In this document: one piece after another, positions 3,546-16,497 of the stretch
How positions within the stretch are numbered: position 1 is the stretch's first letter
How the letters are laid out: every line of letters begins with the position of its first letter
NCBI GenBank assembly: GCA_016839365.1
Contig: JAEOUH010000064.1
Span: forward strand, 1 to 21,116
Length of the DNA: 21,116 nt
Direction of reading: 5' to 3'
From: Candidatus Hermodarchaeota archaeon
GTDB lineage: Archaea; Asgardarchaeota; Hermodarchaeia; Hermodarchaeales; Hermodarchaeaceae
Position numbers and translations under genes: made by a program
Notes under the pieces: model-generated
Told to the model about the DNA's origin: nothing
Databases searched by the model: none
What the model saw: the letters and a program-made list of their open reading frames with translations, nothing else

Positions 3546-4916
3546 CTATTGAATCAACTCGATGAAATGAACCGAACAACTAATGCAAGGATCGTAGGCC
3601 CTAACTAAGGGCTCTAGCTTAGTAGCAACTGTTTTGTGGCTCTCTGGAGCGGGTTTGAGGAGTTCTGGGAGAAGCTCTTGGGCTTTAGCTTGGATGGCAT
3701 GCTCAATGGTTCGTACGTTCTGTCCAGTGGCTATCATACAGTTGACTTTGGTGATAATGCCATCTTCGTTGGTCCAGTAGTTGTGGAAAAGAGTGCCGCG
3801 TGGGGCTTCGACGACGCCAACGCCTTCACCGGCACGGGGTTCAGCGGGGATGCGGTAATTGTCTTCTTGGAGGGTGGAGTCTTCGATGAGGGTGATGGCT
3901 TGTTCAACGACGCTGACTAGCTCTGCAGAGCGTGCAAGGTTGTAAGCCATGGGGTCGTGGACCGGTTTGCCACCGAACATTTCGTAGAGTTTGTCATGAT
4001 ATCCCTGGGCGAGTTCGCTCGCCATGGTTTTAGCTACGTTAAGGCGGGCAAGGGGTCCAACCCGGTAGTTTCCCTTTTTGGGCCCAAGCTCTTTGATGAA
4101 TGGGTATTTGACCGTGGTGTAGGGCATCGCATCTTCAGCGATATAATGGGCATAGTCCTTGGGAGCGAAGTCATGAAGTTTTTTCCCCTCGGGAGTGACG
4201 AAGCGAAGGGTGCCGTCATAAATATCGTGAACGCCTTTGTTGTGTAGGCCGAAGTAATGAGTGGGATCACTGAGATAGTATCCCACTTTGGCGTCCTCTT
4301 GTTTGGCGAGTTTGAAGTAGAGATCGGCGATTGTCTGGGCGGTTTTCAGGGCTGTGGGAGCGCGTTTAGCGAGTTTATTTCGTTCTTCTTCTGGTAGGGG
4401 GCCTGCCATGCCACCGGGAATGGCGGTACAGGGGTGAATCATACGTCCTCCAACGGCTTTGATAAGGCTTTGTCCAAACATTCGAAGTTCAATCCCCGCT
4501 TTCGCAAGCTTAGGATTCTTCGCCGCGACCTCAAGAACGTTGGGTGTATCAGGGGTGAGGAAATCGGGGAGTGCCAGATAGACTTGGTGGAGTGCGTGAC
4601 TGTGGATGTATTCACCAAAGTTTTCGAGATGGCGGAGCTTGACCGCTTGTTTAGGTGGGGTAACGCCCCAGGCTGCTTCGACGGCCTTGACAGAGCCCAA
4701 GTGGTGGGCAACTGAGCAGATACCACAGATACGTTCAGAGAGTTGCGGGGCATCTTCAGCCGGGATGCCTTCCATGAAGCGTTCAAACATCCGTGGGGAC
4801 TCGATAATGTGGAAATGGCATTGATTAAGTTTGCCTCCGGTGACATCCAAAGTGATCTTAGCATGACCTTCCAAGCGGGTCATGGGCTCAATTTCGATAT
4901 GTTTTGGTTTGCTCAT
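3546..4916 (-). CDS. mvhA: [NiFe] hydrogenase large subunit, group 3c (MvhA-type)
   Basis: EPMTRLEGHAKI, L1 RICGICSVAHH, YRVGPLARLN, EAPRGTLFH, L2 RAYDPCISCSVH; 4-nt overlap with mvhG. Confidence 0.92.
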   Translation of the reverse strand: MSKPKHIEIEPMTRLEGHAKITLDVTGGKLNQCHFHIIESPRMFERFMEGIPAEDAPQLSERICGICSVAHHLGSVKAVEAAWGVTPPKQAVKLRHLENFGEYIHSHALHQVYLALPDFLTPDTPNVLEVAAKNPKLAKAGIELRMFGQSLIKAVGGRMIHPCTAIPGGMAGPLPEEERNKLAKRAPTALKTAQTIADLYFKLAKQEDAKVGYYLSDPTHYFGLHNKGVHDIYDGTLRFVTPEGKKLHDFAPKDYAHYIAEDAMPYTTVKYPFIKELGPKKGNYRVGPLARLNVAKTMASELAQGYHDKLYEMFGGKPVHDPMAYNLARSAELVSVVEQAITLIEDSTLQEDNYRIPAEPRAGEGVGVVEAPRGTLFHNYWTNEDGIITKVNCMIATGQNVRTIEHAIQAKAQELLPELLKPAPESHKTVATKLEPLVRAYDPCISCSVHFIELIQ

Positions 4917-5794
4917 TTTTTCTTCACTCCTTTGCGTAGATTATCGAGTTTTGAAGAAGCATAGGTGTACCTTGCGAAAGTTCCGGCAAGACGAGGTAAT
5001 TTGAAGTTGGCGACTTGATCCTCCTCCATCGCCGCTAGTGCATCAAGCATGGCGATGCCTTGATCCCAGACCGTTTCGGCGGGTCCACGGCAGCCGGTGC
5101 AAGGCATGTTGCGGTGAGTGCATTCGGCATTGCAGCCTGCACGAGTAGCGGGCCCCATGCAAAGAAAGCCCTGAGAGAGGAGACAGGTGCCGAGTTCTGG
5201 AATTTCGTGGGTTCGGCGCAGTTTCTTTGGTATCTCGGTTAACCGTTCAAGAGGACATTCGTCACAGACACTTTTCTTGGAAAGTTGGGGGGTTTCTCCA
5301 GCTAGCAATGTTGTGATGACTTTGGCGATTTCATCAGGATTGGGGGGGCAGCCTGGGATGACGAAATCAACTTTGACAACGTCACTGAGGCGAAGGTCCG
5401 CGGGAAGGACTTGTGGCACATTTTCGTGTGGGACTATCTTCTGAGCCATCAGCACCGTTTTATGATAAACATATTCAACACCTTCCTGAGCGTTGAAGGT
5501 GTTGGCGAGGCCATTCACTCCACCGTGGGCTGAGCAGGCGCCGAGGGCGATGAGGCATTTTGCCTGTTTACGCATGGCTTTCGCCATTTCTTGGTCATGG
5601 TCTGTGCGAATACTACCTTCAACGAGAGCTACATCTATGTTGGGGGGAATGGGATTCTTCGTATCTACGATCGGATATGAGTAGACGAGTTCGACATCCT
5701 TGAGCAAATCGAGAAGCGCTGTGCCAGTATCGAGTAAGGCAATATGGCAGCCACTGCAGCCTGCCATGCCCATAGTTGCGATGCGGACGGTCAT
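4913..5794 (-). CDS. mvhG: [NiFe] hydrogenase small subunit (MvhG-type)
   Basis: GCSGC, EGS, GACS, PGCPP, SVCDECP, CLLSQGFLCMGPATRAGC, PCTGCRGP. Confidence 0.93.
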   Translation of the reverse strand: MTVRIATMGMAGCSGCHIALLDTGTALLDLLKDVELVYSYPIVDTKNPIPPNIDVALVEGSIRTDHDQEMAKAMRKQAKCLIALGACSAHGGVNGLANTFNAQEGVEYVYHKTVLMAQKIVPHENVPQVLPADLRLSDVVKVDFVIPGCPPNPDEIAKVITTLLAGETPQLSKKSVCDECPLERLTEIPKKLRRTHEIPELGTCLLSQGFLCMGPATRAGCNAECTHRNMPCTGCRGPAETVWDQGIAMLDALAAMEEDQVANFKLPRLAGTFARYTYASSKLDNLRKGVKKK

Positions 5795-6267
5795 TCACAC
5801 TTCACCTCTGGTTTCATTTTCTTCAGCGGATTAGGCCCGAGCTGCAAGATGTGTTCATAAAACGATGACGCAGTTTCTACCCATTTACCAGCCATTCCGG
5901 CACTCATCAGTTCAAAGACCAGACGTCCACCAAGCCCAATGTCTTCGAGATCTTTGGCCAATTTCTGCATTCGTTTTTCGGCGTGGTAGTTTCCAGTGAC
6001 GAAGTGGCATTGATCTTTTAGACAGCCAGTCACCATGACACCATCCGCGCCTTCTCGAAGGGCTTCAAGGACATGAAGCGGATCAACCCTTCCCGAACAG
6101 GGAACACGGATGATCTCCACATTCACGGGATATGGCATTTTACTTGTTCCAGCAAGATCAGCCGCGCCATAGGAGCAATAGTGGCAGCAGAAACTGACGA
6201 TCCTTGGCTGAAAGGATGGTTTAGACTTTGCAGATGCTTTTGCGGGGCTAGTTTTGGTTTTACTCAT
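5791..6267 (-). CDS. mvhD: Hydrogenase [2Fe-2S] subunit MvhD
   Basis: FCCHYCSYGAAD, RVPCSGRVD, GADGV, GCLKDQCHF; 4-nt overlaps with both neighbours. Confidence 0.95.
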   Translation of the reverse strand: MSKTKTSPAKASAKSKPSFQPRIVSFCCHYCSYGAADLAGTSKMPYPVNVEIIRVPCSGRVDPLHVLEALREGADGVMVTGCLKDQCHFVTGNYHAEKRMQKLAKDLEDIGLGGRLVFELMSAGMAGKWVETASSFYEHILQLGPNPLKKMKPEVKCE

Positions 6268-8252
6268 TTTTTCGACGCCCCAATGTTTGCTAGTAGACCC
6301 TCGATTTGGGAGTAGATCTGTTTATCACGGTAGTGTCGGAGCTGAATGGCTTCGGCGGGGCATTCAACGACACAGATGCCGCAGCCCTTACAGGCGACTT
6401 CAATAGTTTTAGCAACACCACCTTCCATGTAGATGGCACTATAAGGGCAGACTGCATAGCAGTTGGCACAACCGATACAGAGGGATTCATCGACGATGGA
6501 TTTAGCAAGATCCACTTCAACTTCCCCTTTGCTCATTGGGATGGCGGCGTGAGAAGCTGCAGCAGCACCCATAAAGGAGGCTTCAGCGATGTCTCGTGGA
6601 CTGCTACAAGCGCCAGCGAGGAATATTCCATTAGTTGTTGTGTCAACTGGGGCGAGTTTCAGATGATATTCCCGGAAGAATCCATCTAAATCCACTTCTA
6701 AGTTCATGGTTCGGGCGAGTTCCTTTGCCCCACGGGCAGGAATCATGGCAGCGGATAATACGAGTAAGTCTACTGGGAATTGCTCCTGTGTGCCATTATG
6801 ATGGTCGACGGTTAGGTTCAGACTCTTGTTATTATCCTCTTTGACATCTGTAATATCTGCACGATGGAATTCTACACCTAGGCGTTGTGCGTCCAGATAA
6901 TATCGTTCATACTCCTTACCTTGCAAGCGGATGTCTTTGTAAAACACGGTAACTTGGGTGTCGGGCCAGTGTTCTTTAATATAGACCGCATGTTTCATCG
7001 CGACTTGACAACAAACGCGAGAACAGTGAGAATAGTAATTCGGATCACGACTGCCAACACACTGAATCATCCCGACCCGTTTTGGTAATCTTTTATCTGA
7101 AATACGTCGTAACTGTCCATCAGTAGGACTCATAGGATCGAGGATCCGGGCAAGCATGAATTGAGAAATCACATTGGGGTATTCACCATACCCATACAAT
7201 CCTTCTGGTTTGAAGACGTCAAAACCTGTGGCAACAATCACTGTCCCCACATTAATTTCGGTCTCTTTTGGTTGTTGGTCAAGATGAATTGCGTTAACGG
7301 GGCAGATTTGTTGACATTTGCCACATTTCGTGCAGGTGTCAAAATCAATCACAGGGGCTCTTGGAACAGCTTGAGAGTAGGGATAGAAGATGGCTTTCCG
7401 ATTGTCTAATCCATAATTATGTTCGTTAGGAACTTCAACCGGACAGACTTCCATACATTTGCCACAAAGTGTGCAAGTATCGATGTTCACACCTCGAGGT
7501 TTGCTATGAAGTCGAGCTTGGAAGTTGCCAATATAGCCACTGAATTGGGTAACCTCAGTTTGTGTATACACGTTGATTTTAGGGTCATTGAGAAGGATTC
7601 GCTTTGACAAACATTTACGAGCCATTTCTCCATGGCGCGGTGGAACACACACTCCACAAGTATCAGTCATGAAGACAAAGCCTAATTGTGCTGATTTTCC
7701 ACCAAGTGCCGGACTACGTTCAACCAAATGCACTTCATAACCATTATCAGCGAGCAGTGTTGTCGCTGCAATTCCAGCGATTCCTGCCCCAATTACCATA
7801 CAAACGGGAGGTACTTTTTGTGTTGTTGAACCAATGGACTCAAGTTCTGCTGCGCGATAGACTCCAGCACGGATGAGGTCTTTAGCCTTTTCAGTTGCCT
7901 CACCATAGTCGTCCTTTTGTTTCATGTGGGCCCAAGAGACTTGTTCGCGAATATTGACCATTTCAAAAAAGAACGGGTTGATTCCAGCGTCTATTACGGT
8001 TCGACGGAACGTGGGCTCATGTAATTTTGGACTACAAGAGGCTACAATGACTCGATTAAGCTTATGTTTCTTGATGTGCTTCTTGATGATATTTTGCCCT
8101 TCCTCTGAACAGGTAAAAAGTTGCCATCCTGCATAAGCAACATGAGGAAGGTCCTTTGCATATTCTGCAACGGCAGGAACATCAACGACTTTAGCAATAT
8201 TGGTACCACATTTACAGACAAAAACACCGATTCGTGGTTCTTCGTTCTTCAT
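6264..8252 (-). CDS. hdrA: Heterodisulfide reductase subunit A-like flavoprotein (copy 2)
   Basis: RIGVFVCKCG, VASCSP, NIREQVSW, FAD motif IGAGIAG, inserted and C-terminal ferredoxin pairs, IQCVGSRD...CSRVCC. The start is moved to the ATG at 8252 (GGAGG SD, no overlap with the upstream gene). Confidence 0.93.
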   Translation of the reverse strand: MKNEEPRIGVFVCKCGTNIAKVVDVPAVAEYAKDLPHVAYAGWQLFTCSEEGQNIIKKHIKKHKLNRVIVASCSPKLHEPTFRRTVIDAGINPFFFEMVNIREQVSWAHMKQKDDYGEATEKAKDLIRAGVYRAAELESIGSTTQKVPPVCMVIGAGIAGIAATTLLADNGYEVHLVERSPALGGKSAQLGFVFMTDTCGVCVPPRHGEMARKCLSKRILLNDPKINVYTQTEVTQFSGYIGNFQARLHSKPRGVNIDTCTLCGKCMEVCPVEVPNEHNYGLDNRKAIFYPYSQAVPRAPVIDFDTCTKCGKCQQICPVNAIHLDQQPKETEINVGTVIVATGFDVFKPEGLYGYGEYPNVISQFMLARILDPMSPTDGQLRRISDKRLPKRVGMIQCVGSRDPNYYSHCSRVCCQVAMKHAVYIKEHWPDTQVTVFYKDIRLQGKEYERYYLDAQRLGVEFHRADITDVKEDNNKSLNLTVDHHNGTQEQFPVDLLVLSAAMIPARGAKELARTMNLEVDLDGFFREYHLKLAPVDTTTNGIFLAGACSSPRDIAEASFMGAAAASHAAIPMSKGEVEVDLAKSIVDESLCIGCANCYAVCPYSAIYMEGGVAKTIEVACKGCGICVVECPAEAIQLRHYRDKQIYSQIEGLLANIGASKK

Positions 8253-8256
8253 CTTC

Positions 8257-10608
8257 CTAGCCTCCAATACTCGCTTTGATATTTGCAACCGCCTCTCGAG
8301 CAAAGGCAGCAAACTCTTTTGCATCTCGTCCGATTAACTGTACAACTTGAACTTTGTTTGGATTCATACCTGATTGGGTGAGGAGATTTTGGACTACGTG
8401 AGCCCGGCTGTTGGCCATTCGAGCTCCACGTCCATAATGACAGAGTTTTGAATCACACGCAAAAAGAATCACACCATCAGCACCAGCTTCAAGTGTCTGA
8501 AGAAGTGTAGGTGTCGAAATACTGCCTGTACATGGAACTTCAAGAATGTGCAGATCAGCAGGATATTGAAGGCGTTCCTCACCTGCTTCATCAATAGCTC
8601 GATAAACACATTCGTTACAAGCGAATCCGACGATTATGTTCTCAGTTCCTTCAATACTATTACTTAATAAACCCTGGAGCGCGGAATCAATAACTGTGGG
8701 ATTCGTATTAAGCGGTCCGATAGCCGCTACGGGACAAATAGCCATGCATTCGCCACATGCTTGGCAACGAACTTCATCTACAACAACACAATCTCCTGTA
8801 ATGTCCAAGGTTACCGCTTGAGAAGGACAGGCCGGAATGCACAGCCCACATCCATTACAGAGATCCTTATTTACAACGGCAATATCCAAATCCTTGGTCA
8901 TCGATTGTGTAGCCAGCCATACGGATGCCTGTTCTGCTGCAGCACCCGCGAGCTCAACCGATTCCGGAATATCCTTGGGGCCATGACACGTGCCTGCAAG
9001 ATAAACACCATTAACATCGGTTCTCGCTAATGCAACTTTTTCATCTAAGGCTTTGAAGAACCCGAGTGAACCTAAGGGCACACCAAACATCTCGGCAAGC
9101 TCTTTGGTTCCTGGCGAAGGAGTCATTGCACAAGAGAGTACAACTAAATCAGTTTCAATGGATTTCATTACACCGTCTGAATCAGAGTATTTTACTATAG
9201 GTTTATCATTGACACGACTAATTTCGACAGTATCACCACGGTAAACGACTTTGATATTATATTCATCACAAGCTCGCACATAGAATTCATCAAACCCCTT
9301 TCCACCAGCCCGGATATCCCGCGCCACAATGGTGATATCGATATTCGGGTCATATTCAAGTTTTGCCAGTTCAGCATGCTTAATCGCAGCCATACAGCAA
9401 TAAGCTGAACATTGCCAGCTAAACCGCTCATCGCGACTCCCCACACATTGTATCATCACAATATTCTGAGGCTTCCGACCATCAGAGGGCACCTCTAATT
9501 TCCCACCAAAGGGTCCAACGGAGTCCATCATTCGAATAAACTGCATTTGCGTAATAACGTCCTGATTCTCCTCATAATGTAACTCGGGAACCACGGACGG
9601 ATCAAATTCCTTGAATCCCGTGGCGAAAACCACGCTGCCCACCCGCACTTGAACCATCTCATCCTTCATCTCATAATCAATAGCATTCGCCGGACAGATT
9701 TTTTCACAAACACCGCATTTATCGGTGGTCAGCTTCTTACAATGTTCAGCATCAATTGTAACCTTCCTCGGCACACTCTGAGAAAACGGCATATAGATGG
9801 CTTTCCGCTTCGCAATTCCCCACGACCAATCATCGTCAACTTTGGTTGGGCATTTCTCGATACACTGCATACATCCTGTGCATCTATCCCAATTCACATA
9901 GGTCGCTTTCTTGTTCAGCATCAGCAACCAATCCTTCCCAGTATGTTCAGCAGCCACTAAATCCGTATACGGATACAATCCAATATTCGGATGTGTTGCC
10001 GCTTCCGCCATCTTCGGACCTAAAATACAAATCGAACAATCTAAAGTGGGATATGTTTTGTTAAGGACAGCCATGTGTCCGCCGATGGTAGGTTCTTTAT
10101 CGACGAGGTGGACTTTGATGCCCCGGTCGGCTAGGTCAAGAGCAGCCTGGATGCCTGCGACGCCTGCACCAAGCACGAGGACTTCTTGGGTGATGGGGAA
10201 GGTTTTGGTAACGATTGGGCTTTGAGCACCGATTCGGAATACTGCGGCCCGGATAAGACGTTTGGCTTTAGCCGTGGCTCCTTTGGGGTCGTTTTGGTGG
10301 ACCCAAGCGCAGTGTTCGCGAATATTGGCAAATGTGATTTGACCACGGCTCATACCTGCTTCTTTTGCGGCTTGGAAAAAGCGGGGTCCAAAAAATTGAG
10401 GACTGCAGGCTGCAATAACAAGCCGATCTAGTTTCTTTTTGGAGATAGTCTGCGTGAGGGCTTGGAGGGGTTCGTGTTGACACCAATCACCGCGGGCTTC
10501 GACGTGTTTCACCTGGGGGAGGGTTTCAGTGAAGGTGGTGAGGGCTTCGTAGTCGAGGGTGCTGCTAGTGGTGTCGCCGCAGTTACAGAGGAGGACGCCG
10601 ATTTTCAT
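8257..10608 (-). CDS. hdrA: HdrA-like flavoprotein fused to a C-terminal MvhD domain (copy 1)
   Basis: KIGVLLCNCG, LGAGVAG, KTYPTLDCSIC, IQCVGSRD...CSAYCC and ferredoxin motifs. The last ~125 aa (FACNECVY...VPCTG...GADGV...C...CHY) form an MvhD domain. Confidence 0.94.
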   Translation of the reverse strand: MKIGVLLCNCGDTTSSTLDYEALTTFTETLPQVKHVEARGDWCQHEPLQALTQTISKKKLDRLVIAACSPQFFGPRFFQAAKEAGMSRGQITFANIREHCAWVHQNDPKGATAKAKRLIRAAVFRIGAQSPIVTKTFPITQEVLVLGAGVAGIQAALDLADRGIKVHLVDKEPTIGGHMAVLNKTYPTLDCSICILGPKMAEAATHPNIGLYPYTDLVAAEHTGKDWLLMLNKKATYVNWDRCTGCMQCIEKCPTKVDDDWSWGIAKRKAIYMPFSQSVPRKVTIDAEHCKKLTTDKCGVCEKICPANAIDYEMKDEMVQVRVGSVVFATGFKEFDPSVVPELHYEENQDVITQMQFIRMMDSVGPFGGKLEVPSDGRKPQNIVMIQCVGSRDERFSWQCSAYCCMAAIKHAELAKLEYDPNIDITIVARDIRAGGKGFDEFYVRACDEYNIKVVYRGDTVEISRVNDKPIVKYSDSDGVMKSIETDLVVLSCAMTPSPGTKELAEMFGVPLGSLGFFKALDEKVALARTDVNGVYLAGTCHGPKDIPESVELAGAAAEQASVWLATQSMTKDLDIAVVNKDLCNGCGLCIPACPSQAVTLDITGDCVVVDEVRCQACGECMAICPVAAIGPLNTNPTVIDSALQGLLSNSIEGTENIIVGFACNECVYRAIDEAGEERLQYPADLHILEVPCTGSISTPTLLQTLEAGADGVILFACDSKLCHYGRGARMANSRAHVVQNLLTQSGMNPNKVQVVQLIGRDAKEFAAFAREAVANIKASIGG

Positions 10609-10657
10609 CGTGTGGCACCTAGGCTAGGAGGAGTAGGATAGCGGTTATTGAAGCCAC

Positions 10658-10665
10658 ATATATAT
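10658..10665. promoter_or_regulatory. ATATATAT, candidate TATA box in the divergent hdrA / MBL intergenic region
   Basis: Symmetric TA run about 50 nt from both start codons (10608 and 10717). Confidence 0.4.
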
Positions 10666-10716
10666 TCATCACTCATACGATAGTTTCTTCATGCACTACC
10701 ACGTTGAGGTGGGTAT

Positions 10717-11523
10717 ATGATTGAGATTGAGCGATTCGGTGACGAGGTTACTTGTGTTAAGACGGCGTCTCCAATGGGTGACCGGGCTATCATGTGGGTG
10801 TATGCCTATCAGCTTGGTGATGTGGTCTTTGATGCGGGGTGTGGGAACGCAATTGATGAGCTGCGAGCCTACGCAAAAGCCCATTCTGTGAAGAGGGTGT
10901 ACGTCACGCACGATCATGAGGATCATATTGGTGGATGTACCGCGTTTGTGCCGGAAGCAGAAGTGTTTGCTGGACCTGTAACGCTGGAATCGGTTCATAA
11001 GCCTTATCCGTTGCCTGAGTTTTTCCAGTTTGTCTGGGGGAATCTTACGCCTGTTCCTCAAGCGAAGGTGCTTGATATTTCCTCAATTGTCGTGGGTGAT
11101 GCGACCTTTGAGGTGGTGGATTTGTCAGGGCATAGTCGGGAAATGTTCGGTTTTTGGGACCCAGAGCAACGGTGGTTGTTCTCTTCGGATGCGGTACCCC
11201 TCCCGTCTCAGAAGCAGATGTCGATGTATGATGAGAATATTCCGAAGATGATTCAGCGGATGCAAGAAATCCAAGATATGAATGTGGCGGTTCTGTTTGA
11301 TGGGCATAGGGGCCCGATAGTGGACCCCCACGACCATATTGAAACCCGGATTCGATTTCTTGCTGATCTGGGTGTTCAGGTGCGGGAGTTGGCAGCCGAA
11401 GGGAAATCGATTCCCGAGATAAAAGATATACTTAAGTTTCCTGAGCCTTGGTACCTTCCAAACACTGAGGAACGCTTTGGGATTGACCATCTGATTCGCT
11501 CACTGATTGAAGACCAGGTCTGA
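10717..11523 (+). CDS. MBL-fold metallo-hydrolase
   Basis: DAG, THDHEDHIGG (HxHxDH), SGHS, FSSD and GHRG motifs; GAGGTG SD. Confidence 0.92.
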   Translation: MIEIERFGDEVTCVKTASPMGDRAIMWVYAYQLGDVVFDAGCGNAIDELRAYAKAHSVKRVYVTHDHEDHIGGCTAFVPEAEVFAGPVTLESVHKPYPLPEFFQFVWGNLTPVPQAKVLDISSIVVGDATFEVVDLSGHSREMFGFWDPEQRWLFSSDAVPLPSQKQMSMYDENIPKMIQRMQEIQDMNVAVLFDGHRGPIVDPHDHIETRIRFLADLGVQVRELAAEGKSIPEIKDILKFPEPWYLPNTEERFGIDHLIRSLIEDQV

Positions 11524-11568
11524 TGTATTGTAAAATCTACAATGAAGTTGGTTTTTGAGAGAACGGAT

Positions 11569-11582
11569 GAAAAGATTTTATA
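11569..11582 (+). promoter_or_regulatory. Putative BRE + TATA for the histidine kinase operon
   Basis: GAAAAGA followed by TTTTATA upstream of 11684. Confidence 0.45.
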
Positions 11583-11683
11583 CCGTTTAATGAGCGGGAT
11601 TGAATGCGGGGTTTGAAGCCAGACAAGTACTTTTTCCTGGCATACTCAGCTTACCTGCTCCCTTATGACACGAGGAATCACCC

Positions 11684-13162
11684 ATGTCGCCACCAAATGA
11701 GACTCAGAAGAATCAAGACCGATTTAATCGTCTTGTTGATGCGACTGGGGCTTTGGTGGTAGGAGTAGATACGCTGGGTTGTATAACTCTCTTTAACAAG
11801 CGCTGCCAAGAGGTTACAGGATATTCTACAGAGGAAGTCCTTGGAAAGAACATCGTTGAACTATTCATTCCTGTGGATGAACGGCCTAATCTGATTGATC
11901 GGTTCCAGAATCTGGTGCAAGGAAAATTACCAGCATACTCACCAGAAGTCCATTGGATCACCAAATCAGGTGAACAGCGCCTTGTGCGATGGAATAACAC
12001 TTTCATTACCGATGAGGCAGGAGAAGTCGTGGAAATTTTTGGAATTGGAATCGATATCACTGATTGGAAAGAGACACAGCACGCTTTAGAAGAATCAGAA
12101 GCAAAGTATCGCAGCCTCTTTGATAGTGTTCCTGTGGGGCTGTACAGGACCACTCCAGAAGGACAGATTCATGATGTCAATCCAGCTTTAGTCGAAATGC
12201 TTGGCTTTGAGTCAAAAGCAGAGTTACTGAAACACAAAGCTTCCGAATTCTATGTCCATGCTGAGGCGCGGAAACAATTTGAAGCACATATTAAAGAGGA
12301 GGAAGTTGTCCGAGGTTTCGAAGCTCAGTTTCAACGTCGAGATGGGGAGATCATTTGGATTGAACTAAACACCCGAGCGATTCGCGATGCAAATGGGGAT
12401 ATCTACTGCTATGAGGGAAGTCTGGAAGACATCACTAAACGAAAGGAAGCTGAGATCAAACTGTTAGCAGCTCATCAACGGTCTGAATTCCTCGTCGACC
12501 TTATGGCCCATGACTTGAACAACATTAACCAAGGTATCATGATGACCTTGGAGCTCATCGAAAGCGATGAACAGCTTCCAAAACATCTTCGTGAAGGATT
12601 GGAGGCTTCACTCAATCAAGTGGAACGTAGCGCCGAATTAATAGCAAATGTTAAACGTTTCCAATCCTTGGAAACTGAACCCCGCAGATTATCAACACGC
12701 GATCTTTCTCCTTCATTTCATGCTGCAGTCCGTGCCGTCGAAAGGGCATTTCCGAATAAACAGATATTCTTGTCTACAAACATCCAAGACCAAACCTATT
12801 GGGTCTACAGCGATGGATTCCTCACGGAACTATTCTTCAACATCCTTCATAATGCTGCTAAGATGGATCGCAATCCAATGGTCAAAATCGAAGTGCAAGC
12901 CAGCAAAAATACTACGAACGATTTTGTGAAAGTCGAAGTGCAGGACCAAGGGCCAGGTGTACCTGATTCGGAGAAGAATCGGATTTTCAACCGGTATCTT
13001 AACGGAGCCGAAGGAGTGCGTGGGTCGGGAATAGGATTAACATTGGTCCAGCGGATCCTCCAACGTTATGGCGGTCAGATTTGGGTTGAAGATCGGGTTG
13101 CTGGTGACCACACACAAGGGGCAAACTTTGTTGTGCTCTTACCGAGGGGGGAACGAGAATGA
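11684..13162 (+). CDS. Cytoplasmic PAS-PAS sensor histidine kinase
   Basis: Two PAS/PAC domains ending in DITDWK and DITKRK; H-box MAHDLNN; N-box NILHNAAK; DQGPG; GSGIGL; no TM segment. Confidence 0.95.
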   Translation: MSPPNETQKNQDRFNRLVDATGALVVGVDTLGCITLFNKRCQEVTGYSTEEVLGKNIVELFIPVDERPNLIDRFQNLVQGKLPAYSPEVHWITKSGEQRLVRWNNTFITDEAGEVVEIFGIGIDITDWKETQHALEESEAKYRSLFDSVPVGLYRTTPEGQIHDVNPALVEMLGFESKAELLKHKASEFYVHAEARKQFEAHIKEEEVVRGFEAQFQRRDGEIIWIELNTRAIRDANGDIYCYEGSLEDITKRKEAEIKLLAAHQRSEFLVDLMAHDLNNINQGIMMTLELIESDEQLPKHLREGLEASLNQVERSAELIANVKRFQSLETEPRRLSTRDLSPSFHAAVRAVERAFPNKQIFLSTNIQDQTYWVYSDGFLTELFFNILHNAAKMDRNPMVKIEVQASKNTTNDFVKVEVQDQGPGVPDSEKNRIFNRYLNGAEGVRGSGIGLTLVQRILQRYGGQIWVEDRVAGDHTQGANFVVLLPRGERE

Positions 13163-13524
13163 TTTCCATTTTTATCGTTGATGACGATGAGAACCTCCAT
13201 CGGGTGTATCGATCCTTCTTCTCGATGAAAGGATTCAACGTGGTTGGCAGCGCCTTTGATGGCGACGAAGCCGTGAAACTATTTGGAGCCCTCAACCCTC
13301 GACCAGACGTGTTACTGATGGACTACCGGATGCCCATCAAAGACGGCGTAACTGCCACCAAAGAAATCCGAGTCATTGACCCCGCAAGCAAGATCATCTT
13401 TTTAAGTGCTGACGAAACCGCACGGGAACAGGCGCTGGAAGCAGGAGCCATCTCATTTCTGATAAAGCCCGTACGGTTTGCCCACCTCCTCCAAACTATC
13501 AATCAAGTTTTGGACAACCACTAA
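13159..13524 (+). CDS. Stand-alone response regulator receiver (CheY-like)
   Basis: IVDDD, LMDYRMPIKDG, FLSA, IKP motifs; no output domain; ATGA overlap with the kinase. Confidence 0.95.
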   Translation: MISIFIVDDDENLHRVYRSFFSMKGFNVVGSAFDGDEAVKLFGALNPRPDVLLMDYRMPIKDGVTATKEIRVIDPASKIIFLSADETAREQALEAGAISFLIKPVRFAHLLQTINQVLDNH

Positions 13525-13554
13525 GCATTTTTGTACTCAGGCATTTTCCGAAAG

Positions 13555-13571
13555 AGGGGAAATCGTATATA
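13555..13571 (+). promoter_or_regulatory. Putative promoter of metVF
   Basis: Purine-rich run followed by TATATA (13566-13571), about 65 nt upstream of metV. Confidence 0.45.
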
Positions 13572-13636
13572 CCCTAACCCTATACGATTAGCCTACCTTC
13601 CAATCATTTGTGTCGATTCAAGTTTGGTGAATCAAC

Positions 13637-14293
13637 GTGATCATTCCAAAACAGATGCCCGTCGAGAAGATCTTGAAAACCATCGAAGGCGTTGAAAATC
13701 TCCTCATCGTTGGTTGTGATGGTTGTTCAGGAATTTATCAGGTGGGCGGCGAAAAGCAGGCCGAAATGCTGGCAAAGCTCATTAAGATGCATCGTCAACT
13801 TAACAACGTACCAGGTGAAGTGCGTCACACCCTTGTGCTGCGACAATGTGATCGTCAACTCGTCGCAACAACCCTACGCCCCCAAATAGAAGGGATTGAG
13901 GCCATGATTTCTCTCGCTTGTGGCGTTGGCCCCCAGACTCTCATTGATGTATTCCCCGAAATGAAAGTATTCACCGCGGTTGACACCTATGGCATGGGGG
14001 GAAAAGACCGCGAACTCGGCCACTTCTTCGAGTACTGTAGTGGCTGCGGGGATTGCCTCCTGAATGAAACTGGAGGCATTTGTCCCATGACCCGTTGCCC
14101 CAAAGCCCTGGTCAATGGTCCATGTGGCGGAATGCTGGAAGGGAAATGTGAAGTCGGGGACTACAAGAATGATTGCGCATGGTATCTGATCTACGAACGT
14201 TTGAAACAATTGGGCCGACTAGATTTGTATAAGAAGTACCGTGAGCCCCGCGACTGGCGTGTTGCCCAATCGCCCCGGAAACTGGAAATCTAA
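13637..14293 (+). CDS. metV: Methylenetetrahydrofolate reductase Fe-S/Zn subunit MetV
   Basis: VGCDGC, RQCD, ACGVG, CSGCGDC, GICPMTRCPKALVNGPCGG, KCEV, CAWYLIY; directly upstream of metF; GGTGA SD before the GTG start. Confidence 0.92.
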   Translation: MIIPKQMPVEKILKTIEGVENLLIVGCDGCSGIYQVGGEKQAEMLAKLIKMHRQLNNVPGEVRHTLVLRQCDRQLVATTLRPQIEGIEAMISLACGVGPQTLIDVFPEMKVFTAVDTYGMGGKDRELGHFFEYCSGCGDCLLNETGGICPMTRCPKALVNGPCGGMLEGKCEVGDYKNDCAWYLIYERLKQLGRLDLYKKYREPRDWRVAQSPRKLEI

Positions 14294-14309
14294 GAGACGG
14301 TGAAAACCT

Positions 14310-15239
14310 ATGGCAAAACGTGAAGCATACAGTAAACTCATGGAAGAAATCAATGCAGGGAAATTCGTGTACACCGGTGAACTTGAACCCGAAAAAATCG
14401 GCGACATGGAAGAAGTCATTGAAGGCGCCAAGAAACTGGTCGGCCATGTTGTCGCCGCCAACGTGACTGATATCCCCCAAAGTTTCGCCTACATGAACTC
14501 ACTAGGGCCCTCATATATGATCCAAGAAAAAGCTGGACTGGAAGCTGTCTGCCAAATGACCTGCCGTGACCGGAACCGACTAGCAATGTTTGCTGACCTG
14601 CTTGCCGCTGGTGCGCTGGGCATTGTTAACATCTTGGCATTAACTGGTGACCATCCTAGCCTAGGTGATCAACCCGAGGCTAAGCCTGTCTTTGACCTCG
14701 ATTCCGCCAGCCTCACAGCCTTGATTCGCAAAATTACTGATGAGGGGGTTGACCTCAATGGACATGAAATTCACAACCCTCCGAAATTCCATGTGGGCGT
14801 TGCCATCAACCCTGGCGCCGTCCCCCTCGACCCCGAGATATTAAAGCTCGAACGAAAGGAAGCCGTCGGTGCAGAATTTGCCCAGACCCAAGTCGTCTTT
14901 GAGATTGAAAAAGCCAAGGAGTTCATGAACGCAATCAAGCATGTCAAAGTTCCTACCCTTGTCGGCATCTTTCCTCTAAAATCGTTTAAAATTGCTGATT
15001 GGATGGAAAAATTCGTTCCCGGTGTTAAGATTCCGGAGCCGATGATGACTCGGCTTAGAGAGCTTAATGGCATCGAGGATAAAGGGATGCGGAAGGAGAA
15101 GATAGCGGAGTATAACGTGGAGTATTATGGTGAGTTTCTCCGTGAGCTGAGAAAAACAACGAACGCTGCGGGTTGTCATATCATGGCGGTGAAGTGGGAA
15201 GAACTCATCCCGCTTATTATTAAAGCATCAGGAAGTTAG
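14310..15239 (+). CDS. metF: Methylenetetrahydrofolate reductase MetF (MetVF type)
   Basis: TGELEP, NVTD, QMTCRDRNR, ALTGDHP, AQTQ, GCHIM; GGTGA SD. Confidence 0.95.
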   Translation: MAKREAYSKLMEEINAGKFVYTGELEPEKIGDMEEVIEGAKKLVGHVVAANVTDIPQSFAYMNSLGPSYMIQEKAGLEAVCQMTCRDRNRLAMFADLLAAGALGIVNILALTGDHPSLGDQPEAKPVFDLDSASLTALIRKITDEGVDLNGHEIHNPPKFHVGVAINPGAVPLDPEILKLERKEAVGAEFAQTQVVFEIEKAKEFMNAIKHVKVPTLVGIFPLKSFKIADWMEKFVPGVKIPEPMMTRLRELNGIEDKGMRKEKIAEYNVEYYGEFLRELRKTTNAAGCHIMAVKWEELIPLIIKASGS

Positions 15240-15357: not shown

Positions 15358-16497
15358 TTAGAGTTCGTGTGCTTGGTTGAACCGCGTAACGACCTGTTGG
15401 AGATTCTTGAGGTTAGCGAGGACCATTTCCTCACCGTATTTCCAGGTCCATGGACCAAGTCCACATTCAGGACCCGCAAAGGGTAATCGGTCACTGCCAT
15501 AGCGGGTGACAACAGCTTCAAGATAATGCAGCATTTCTTCTTGTGGTTGGAGGTAGGCTAGGAAGTTCCCTGACTGGATTTCGTCCCAGGCTTTTCGTAG
15601 ATTAGCGTCTGATGAGAATGTCGGTCCGTCGGTTCGCATGACGGCGGCGCGAATGTATTTGTCGTGCTCCACGAGCCAAGATTTTGAAACAATGACGCTG
15701 TGGTGGGCTTCAAGCAGGTTCCAATTTGCATGAGCGAGTTGGTGGTAGGGAGAAGAATGGAGGTGTAGGCCACGGTAATAAGTAGATGGAATGGTTGAGA
15801 GTATTGTATTCCAGGTGGCGATGAGGTGATTGAGTCTAGCATCTGTGGCTGTATCCATGAAGAGATCACCGATGCCAGCGACGCCGATGGAGGGTTCATC
15901 CAGTGTGATGATGAGGGGCTTGAGGTGTTTGGTTTCGATTTGGGCGTTCTTCATGAAAGCATAAACGATGGTGGCGAAGGATTCGATGAGTGGTTCATCG
16001 TAGCGGGGACCAACGCCCATATCCCGCCAGATCCGGCTGGCCATTTCAAAGGGTCCAGTGATACAGGCTCGGTATTGAATGTAATCAATCTCGCATTCTT
16101 GGCAGATGGTTTTTGCCCCGTGTTTAAGCGCTAAGAGTTCGGCTACTTGAGCCTTTTCTGATGGTACCTGGATACGGGTTCCGTCCCAGAGATACCTGTC
16201 TGCTTGTTTTTGGAGGCCACTGCCATGATGGACGATTGGGTCAAGAAACTGGCTGAGCATATCCCGTTTGAAGCTGCTTTGCACATAGCAAGGCGTGCTG
16301 TTCGGTGGTCCCAGCGCTCTCATCTTACGTGTGAAGGCGGCATTGTGCTGTAGGGTGAAATACCTTGACGCTTCTGATTGTTGATCATCCTCAAGATCAG
16401 CAGCGCCTTGGGTGTATCGGGGCAAATCGATGGTGACGAGTGGAAAGCTTCCGACATCAGTTGTACGGATGACATTGGGAGAAATGGTATCCACCAC
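15358..16497 (-). CDS. Divergent single-domain ('core') cobalamin-independent methionine synthase-like protein, MetE catalytic domain / UROD-MetE superfamily
   Basis: TTDVGSFP, CITGPFE, TLDEPSIG and GPECGLG motifs of the MetE C-terminal barrel; HLH stands where HxC is usual; no N-terminal folate-binding half. Confidence 0.75.
   Translation of the reverse strand: MVDTISPNVIRTTDVGSFPLVTIDLPRYTQGAADLEDDQQSEASRYFTLQHNAAFTRKMRALGPPNSTPCYVQSSFKRDMLSQFLDPIVHHGSGLQKQADRYLWDGTRIQVPSEKAQVAELLALKHGAKTICQECEIDYIQYRACITGPFEMASRIWRDMGVGPRYDEPLIESFATIVYAFMKNAQIETKHLKPLIITLDEPSIGVAGIGDLFMDTATDARLNHLIATWNTILSTIPSTYYRGLHLHSSPYHQLAHANWNLLEAHHSVIVSKSWLVEHDKYIRAAVMRTDGPTFSSDANLRKAWDEIQSGNFLAYLQPQEEMLHYLEAVVTRYGSDRLPFAGPECGLGPWTWKYGEEMVLANLKNLQQVVTRFNQAHEL

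Follow-up and report, generated by a model that had tools for sequence, protein, structure and literature searches.

The 21,116-nt stretch of Candidatus Hermodarchaeota archaeon DNA analysed here, referred to as the window, is the entire contig C38 (JAEOUH010000064.1) of G000, a 2.2-Mb metagenome-assembled genome (MAG) with a completeness of 84%. Close homologues bear Asgard labels in NCBI. The window contains an hdr-mvh operon encoding two unlike HdrA paralogues, HdrA' and HdrA*, and a [NiFe] hydrogenase, and, on the opposite strand, the metVF pair. These seven genes, considered below as one module, are the following:

8257-10608, minus strand: hdrA'::mvhD fusion, 783 amino acids, with all HdrA domains and a diverged C-terminal MvhD (PF02662 at residues 659-778)
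6264-8252, minus strand: hdrA*, 662 amino acids, the marker gene of the module, with the invariant C199/C202/C214 insert
5791-6267, minus strand: free mvhD of the canonical type, the probable hydrogenase port
4913-5794, minus strand: mvhG, hydrogenase small subunit
3546-4916, minus strand: mvhA, group 3c-type [NiFe] large subunit; both CxxC metal motifs are present, and the C terminus is extended by 6 residues
13637-14293, plus strand: metV (PF12225)
14310-15239, plus strand: metF (PF02219), probable subunit of a methylene-tetrahydromethanopterin (methylene-H4MPT) reductase

The operon junctions consist, in order, of one 4-nt gap and three ATGA overlaps. Gene and domain calls confirm the preliminary description of the DNA as a coupled operon with two different HdrA paralogues, one free and one fused MvhD, and MvhAG. 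They also bear out the lack of hdrB and hdrC, since no match to the CCG domain of HdrB or to HdrC was obtained anywhere in the window. The metVF block, placed by that description about 3 kb away, lies 3,029 nt from the start of hdrA', with three unrelated genes in between. The reading frame of hdrA* extends open to position 8324; its true start is the ATG at 8252, because the same start is found in databases and the extra upstream part contains a stop in several relatives. Both metal (nickel) motifs of MvhA, at residues 62 and 442, are intact, and the best NCBIfam matches of MvhA and MvhG are VhuA and VhuG, below the equivalog cut-offs.

HdrA' and HdrA*, which share 35% identity, each align over their full length to the solved HdrA (5ODC chain A), and the N-terminal, flavin, inserted and C-terminal ferredoxin domains, together with the cluster cysteines, are present in both. 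Directly after a conserved CxxC, HdrA* bears an insert, CxxC-x11-C, adding an invariant third cysteine (C199, C202 and C214); in the AlphaFold model of HdrA* (mean predicted local distance difference test score 84) the insert (residues 196-213) scores below 50. All 39 dereplicated insert-bearing HdrA* sequences form one clade (support 0.999), the 31 sequences of their upstream HdrA' partners form a separate clade (support 1.0), and HdrA'::MvhD stands directly before HdrA* at every HdrA* locus with upstream DNA. The asymmetric HdrA heterodimer suggested earlier fits these data, the paralogues being always in tandem and in two distinct clades, and is kept here as a putative assembly. Among 400 Asgard genomes HdrA* occurs in the host family only (14 genomes), and beyond the Asgard archaea it was found in MAGs of Bathyarchaeia, Thermoprotei and Desulfurococcales.

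Glu356 together with Lys409 is considered a marker for bifurcating flavins (PMC9430772, PMC12054007). The position of Glu356 is occupied by Ile358 in HdrA' and Ala368 in HdrA*, and Lys409 is retained as Lys410 and Lys420. Glu356 is missing from every HdrA* (39/39) and from 28 of the 31 HdrA', the three that keep it being of the Thermoprotei type; it is present in 36/40 outside sequences and in all four other HdrAs of G000. Two His-containing motifs of HdrA* are gone from the HdrA' arm. In Mvh-Hdr the CxxC pair and MvhD Asp71/His68 bind an unidentified ligand (PMC13580544). His68 and Asp71, counted as a further marker of bifurcation, are missing from both MvhDs of the module. Apart from this the free MvhD conforms to the canonical type; the fused copy has diverged strongly but keeps its four [2Fe-2S] cysteines.

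The relation of metVF to the operon was analysed at distant loci, in which HdrA* is 46-60% identical to the window protein; these were clustered at 88% identity, and the clusters of the free-MvhD type with enough flank were taken as informative. As controls served 54 hdrA loci of at least 10 kb each, retrieved in the same scans. Of the 19 informative clusters, all from outside the host family, 18 have metVF no more than about 400 bp from the operon, and hdrBC was found in the available DNA of none of the free-MvhD-type distant loci, whereas the control loci contain metVF in 1/54 and hdrB in 47/54. Hence, when synteny with metVF is compared with synteny with hdrBC in relatives, as the preliminary description had proposed, it is the linkage to metVF that is conserved. 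That description had also called the link circumstantial, as metVF is outside the operon; in G000 metVF is a separate transcription unit, and in the distant archaea the proximity recurs. Four arrangements were observed: at L053 and L091 metVF stands upstream on the same strand, at most loci it is divergent, at L095 it lies downstream of mvhA, and at L174 it is a metV::metF fusion. The natural fusion gene occupies L174:3108-4733 and encodes 541 amino acids. The MetV beside the module has its own N-terminal signature, a sub-type found in the sample only next to the module. Module-linked sequences form one clade, weakly (0.71), in the MetV tree and are not resolved as a single clade in the MetF tree; among solved structures no match to MetV was obtained.

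The distant loci often lie among fwd, mch, mer-like, mtrH and corrinoid genes. At L107, L109 and L098 fwd genes follow the module where mvhGA would be expected; L107 and L109 additionally have mch and a corrinoid gene. At L095/L173 mvhDGA-metVF is preceded by two successive HdrA'/HdrA* pairs, and the HdrA* of the first pair is degenerate at Lys409.

Within the genus, synteny by itself was rejected as evidence of linkage because unrelated genes are equally conserved. Four neighbouring genes have to be considered here:

10717-13524, plus strand: three genes between the operon and metVF, for a protein of the metallo-beta-lactamase fold, a PAS histidine kinase and a receiver protein
15358-16497, convergent to metF: MetE-like core methionine synthase gene (NF004712, below cut-off)

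Two relatives on separate branches, G006 and G014, have lost both the operon and metVF and retain the three intervening genes. The absence of both blocks is clean in G006, and the G014 locus is explicable by one inversion and one deletion, fragments of mvhA and hdrA' remaining. On the G014 contig C29 (L176:5595-10154) a frameshifted mvhA remnant, the inverted three-gene block and a 5' fragment of hdrA' can be discerned. The three intervening genes are bystanders outside the module, since these module-less genomes keep them and none of them turned up between metVF and hdrA' at the distant loci; the kinase and the receiver were, for the same retention, ruled out as dedicated regulators. A further explanation is that metVF is a mere neighbour of the operon, serving methionine synthesis with the MetE-like gene, which adjoins metF here and lies near metF in two other Asgard families; the unrelated genes included in the genus-wide synteny agree with it. 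However, the linkage of the operon to metVF holds across phyla and rearrangements where no MetE-like gene is nearby, and G006 and G014 keep the MetE-like gene after the loss of metVF. This explanation is largely refuted and very improbable. The linkage at distant loci, the co-loss in two genus relatives and the module-bearing MAGs without detected HdrC described below indicate that the association with metVF is not accidental, and a functional link of the HdrA pair and the hydrogenase to MetVF is regarded as highly probable.

Two weaker signs agree with such a link, namely the N-terminal signature of module-linked MetV and a candidate common operator of both promoters, GTAYR-N11-YRTAY:

10657-10678, minus strand: candidate operator at the hdr-mvh operon, whose TATA box it overlaps, in 14/14 family promoters
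13565-13586, plus strand: candidate operator over the TATA box of the metVF promoter, in 13/13 family promoters

It is imperfectly palindromic, lies some 50 nt ahead of the start codon and occurs in 5 of 2,393 upstream windows genome-wide; the motif was defined after the fact, and one of its arms is the TATA box. No copy was detected in the distant Thermoproteota-type loci, and the regions upstream of mer, frhB and the other hdr operons yielded a single match with one mismatch, at C63, and nothing else. A scan for sigma-70 promoters and terminators, a model unsuited to archaea, gave results at chance level and was discarded.

G000 possesses two hdrCB pairs, each in an operon with its own Glu356-bearing hdrA. 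On C24 the order is hdrA::mvhD-hdrC-hdrB; on C27 (7503-8943 and downstream) one operon has hdrCB and hdrA-mvhDGA with genes for a kor-type 2-oxoacid oxidoreductase placed between them. The window operon is therefore an additional, different system beside the ordinary Hdr systems of G000. In the MAGs G400, G401, G402 and G404 HdrA' and HdrA* are the only HdrAs; HdrC was not found in these incomplete MAGs by a search that recovers both G000 copies, and their sole HdrB-sized protein, where present, lies in a membrane hydrogenase operon. Mer was likewise not found in G400, G401 and G404, which are incomplete. A family search around G400 returned G400 alone. The assignment of the HdrA pair and hydrogenase to MetVF rather than to HdrBC, made in the preliminary description with hdrBC elsewhere in the genome named among the possible objections, has thus gained from the synteny counts (18/19 against 1/54); hdrBC does occur elsewhere in G000, although both pairs stand beside their own hdrA.

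One could argue that the HdrA pair and the hydrogenase borrow HdrBC in trans as a variant of Mvh-Hdr, MetVF being co-regulated and fed by soluble ferredoxin, the route proposed for plain MetVF enzymes. The two hdrCB pairs of G000 would permit it, the HA4 clusters retain their cysteines, in other Asgard archaea related HdrAs without Glu356 adjoin hdrBC, and other Asgard genomes have MetVF without the module. The association of both hdrCB pairs with Glu356-bearing hdrA genes of their own, the four module-bearing MAGs without detected HdrC and the lack of hdrBC at every free-MvhD locus all speak against such borrowing, which we consider unlikely.

Other Hdr-related gene sets were observed in the course of the analysis. 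C46 of G000 (17301-24098) has a lone hdrB within a group 4 membrane hydrogenase operon; a similar gene set is present in three Thermoproteota MAGs (L184, L185, L186) and resembles the Ehd/Ehe clusters (PMC9723716). C79 (2190-6783) encodes an HdrA::MvhD extended at its N terminus by a helix-turn-helix-like segment; mvhG and a divergent mvhA come next. Clusters of Thorarchaeia and other Asgard archaea (L067-L088, L031) combine three or four hdrA with two hdrCB genes, many of the hdrA lacking Glu356.

The C1 pathway of the host includes Fwd, Ftr, Mch, Mtd, Mer and carbon monoxide dehydrogenase/acetyl-CoA synthase, and a single copy of metF was found in G000. Fhs was not found in 19 family genomes, nor FolD in 15 genus genomes (72-91% completeness). 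Since neither was found in those 15 genomes, the carrier is probably H4MPT; of the two substrates named earlier, methylene-H4MPT thus suits the H4MPT-type pathway present, and tetrahydrofolate (H4folate) is unlikely.

In a sister form of the operon, represented by eight clusters, the genes run mvhG-mvhA-hdrA'::mvhD-hdrA*::mvhD, to the extent that the contigs cover them, and metVF is absent. In four of the eight (L055, L114, L100, L065/L118) frhB follows directly downstream, and the N-terminal cluster cysteines of the sister-form HdrA' are lost. FrhB-like subunits are known to be connected through proteins of the MvhD type (PMC12350162). The gene content makes the sister operon a candidate coenzyme F420-reducing hydrogenase without FrhAG, and the presence of frhB in place of metVF suggests that the HdrA pair is a core with exchangeable ends, or terminal module. 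In G000 no large subunit scores as FrhA, and a stand-alone frhB lies directly upstream of mtd (C91, 46423-48402).

In Mvh-Hdr a mobile arm, made up of MvhD together with HdrA's N- and C-terminal domains, delivers electrons to the flavin of the other subunit, and HA4 passes them to HdrBC (PMC13580544, PMC12350162). From the gene content, the cofactor ligands, the conserved linkage, the co-loss and the module-bearing MAGs without detected HdrC we propose that the seven genes probably encode one soluble redox complex in which MetVF is served directly and HdrBC is dispensed with. In the model, the system would couple H2/H+ to methylene/methyl-H4MPT without HdrBC and without F420. HdrA' and HdrA* would form a heterodimer, fed by MvhAG through the free MvhD on the HdrA* arm, the presumed hydrogenase side; electrons would reach the HdrA' flavin, cross to the flavin domain of the other subunit and leave via MetV to the MetF flavin. 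The HA4 clusters of the two HdrA subunits are close to each other in the dimer. Exit through the fused MvhD arm is the simplest route and quite possibly the one used, the other options being an inserted ferredoxin domain and the HdrC site, which would be unoccupied. Complex prediction for HdrA'::MvhD (1-781) with MetV, using 25-row alignments, scored 0.00 twice and was counted neither for nor against binding.

Weighing against this proposal are the following: (i) metVF of G000 forms a transcription unit separate from the hdr-mvh operon; (ii) one distant cluster (L094/L096) is without metVF nearby, and three metVF-linked clusters (L107, L109, L171) are without adjacent mvhGA; (iii) the distant loci are mutually related, so that the linkage counts overstate independence, although the linkage survives several rearrangements; (iv) the hdrCB pairs of G000 are available in trans, and the MAGs without detected HdrC or Mer are incomplete; (v) a wider Glu356-less clade includes members adjoining hdrBC, whereby the loss is not module-specific and was rejected as a unique mark of HdrBC-less modules; (vi) the inserted ferredoxin domains are intact, with all cysteines, in both HdrAs, and (vii) the fused MvhD evolves rapidly, contrary to what one would expect if it were a fixed docking site.

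The methylene-H4MPT couple is near -325 mV. With this value, H2-driven reduction is calculated to yield about -17 kJ/mol at 1 bar H2 and to reverse near 100 Pa, leaving little energy for bifurcation and making the direction dependent on H2. As both HdrAs lack the bifurcation marker Glu356, a near-equilibrium link is the best reading: methylene-H4MPT would be reduced at high H2, and methyl-H4MPT oxidized with H2 release at low H2. The same partners could instead be coupled to ferredoxin, confurcating methyl-H4MPT and reduced ferredoxin into 2 H2 or bifurcating in reverse, with Gln352 and Lys409 as an alternative flavin environment. This explanation differs in energetics, not in membership, and so overlaps the complex proposed above. 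It is a serious rival owing to the Glu356-less clade with hdrBC, the intact inserted ferredoxin domains and the three Glu356-bearing HdrA', which come from the MAGs without detected Mer. Furthermore, Lys409 is mostly retained, Gln352 is nearly invariant, and oxidation of the methyl group to H2 would be endergonic above about 100 Pa H2 on the same calculation. Nevertheless, most members lack Glu356 in both subunits, neither MvhD has His68/Asp71, the fused sister-form HdrA' is devoid of N-terminal cluster cysteines, and H2 at 1 bar provides a driving force of only about 17 kJ/mol. Ferredoxin coupling is accordingly judged rather unlikely, without being negligible, and between the two modes a plain non-bifurcating relay is slightly favoured. 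More tentatively, both operon forms may belong to a family of two-port HdrA heterodimers acting as non-bifurcating adaptors between a hydrogenase and an exchangeable terminal enzyme, the MetVF form replacing Mer and the FrhB form reducing F420.

The module is real and conserved, and its mode of action would resemble that of the acetogens' Hdr-type MetVF, with HdrBC left out. In the MetVF-HdrCBA-MvhD systems of Moorella thermoacetica and Sporomusa ovata, MetV and MetF are likewise encoded with HdrA and MvhD, and there are likewise two HdrA flavin domains per unit; pull-downs in S. ovata linked MetV to HdrA and MvhD to MetF (PMC9430772, PMC5861303). The module differs from them in lacking HdrB and HdrC, in including a cytoplasmic group 3c hydrogenase in its operon, in having two separate full-length HdrAs and two MvhDs, and in its carrier, probably H4MPT, the H4folate branch (Fhs, FolD) not having been found in the genomes searched. 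Moreover, the Glu/Lys signature is in neither window flavin site, whereas S. ovata keeps it in one. With MvhAGD-HdrABC of methanogens (PDB 5ODC, 8RVU, 9SW2-6) the module shares the hydrogenase, MvhD and the HdrA domain order; it departs from that complex in its two dissimilar HdrAs instead of a homodimer, an operon without HdrBC, the loss of Glu356 and of MvhD His68/Asp71, and the extra cysteine insert of HdrA* beside the Cys194/Cys197 pair.

Tandem hdrA paralogues also occur in anaerobic methanotrophic archaea (ANME), and the ANME heterodimers have been proposed to break two-fold symmetry (Chadwick et al. 2022, PMC9012536). In ANME the members of a pair are truncated in complementary ways, affecting Cys197 and the N-terminal domain, whereas both window HdrAs are full length and keep both features. 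For the metFV-hdrA-mvhD cluster of Ca. Syntrophoarchaeum, MetF was proposed to use H4MPT and to plug into HdrA; PMC9012536 names no hydrogenase there and proposes bifurcation or confurcation. In ElpABC-Hdr and FdhB-MvhD-Hdr (PMC12350162) an MvhD-type exchangeable connector serves an F420-binding subunit, as may occur in the frhB-linked sister form; unlike the latter, they are input arms of an HdrBC-containing bifurcating complex. Tandem HdrA heterodimers and the archaeal metFV-hdrA-mvhD are thus already published. The literature covered, most subscription papers lying outside the search, held no description of the HdrA pair with mvhDGA and metVF, the HdrA* clade, the hydrogenase link or the frhB sister form.

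Where MetVF-type reductases obtain their electrons, and whether archaeal MetF substitutes for Mer with H4MPT as carrier, are questions still open in the literature (PMC9012536, PMC9430772). The module names a specific electron partner of MetVF in Asgard archaea, Bathyarchaeia and Thermoprotei, removes HdrBC from the scheme and defines a seven-protein set for assay. Its changes at Glu356, at MvhD His68/Asp71 and beside Cys194/Cys197 hit the part of the HdrA mechanism that the 2026 structures call unresolved (PMC13580544, PMC13518236). If the more tentative adaptor reading is true, the module would be a direct, F420-independent H2:methylene-H4MPT oxidoreductase able to replace Mer. The candidate complex would form a direct connection from H2 to the methyl step of carbon fixation in several uncultured archaeal groups.

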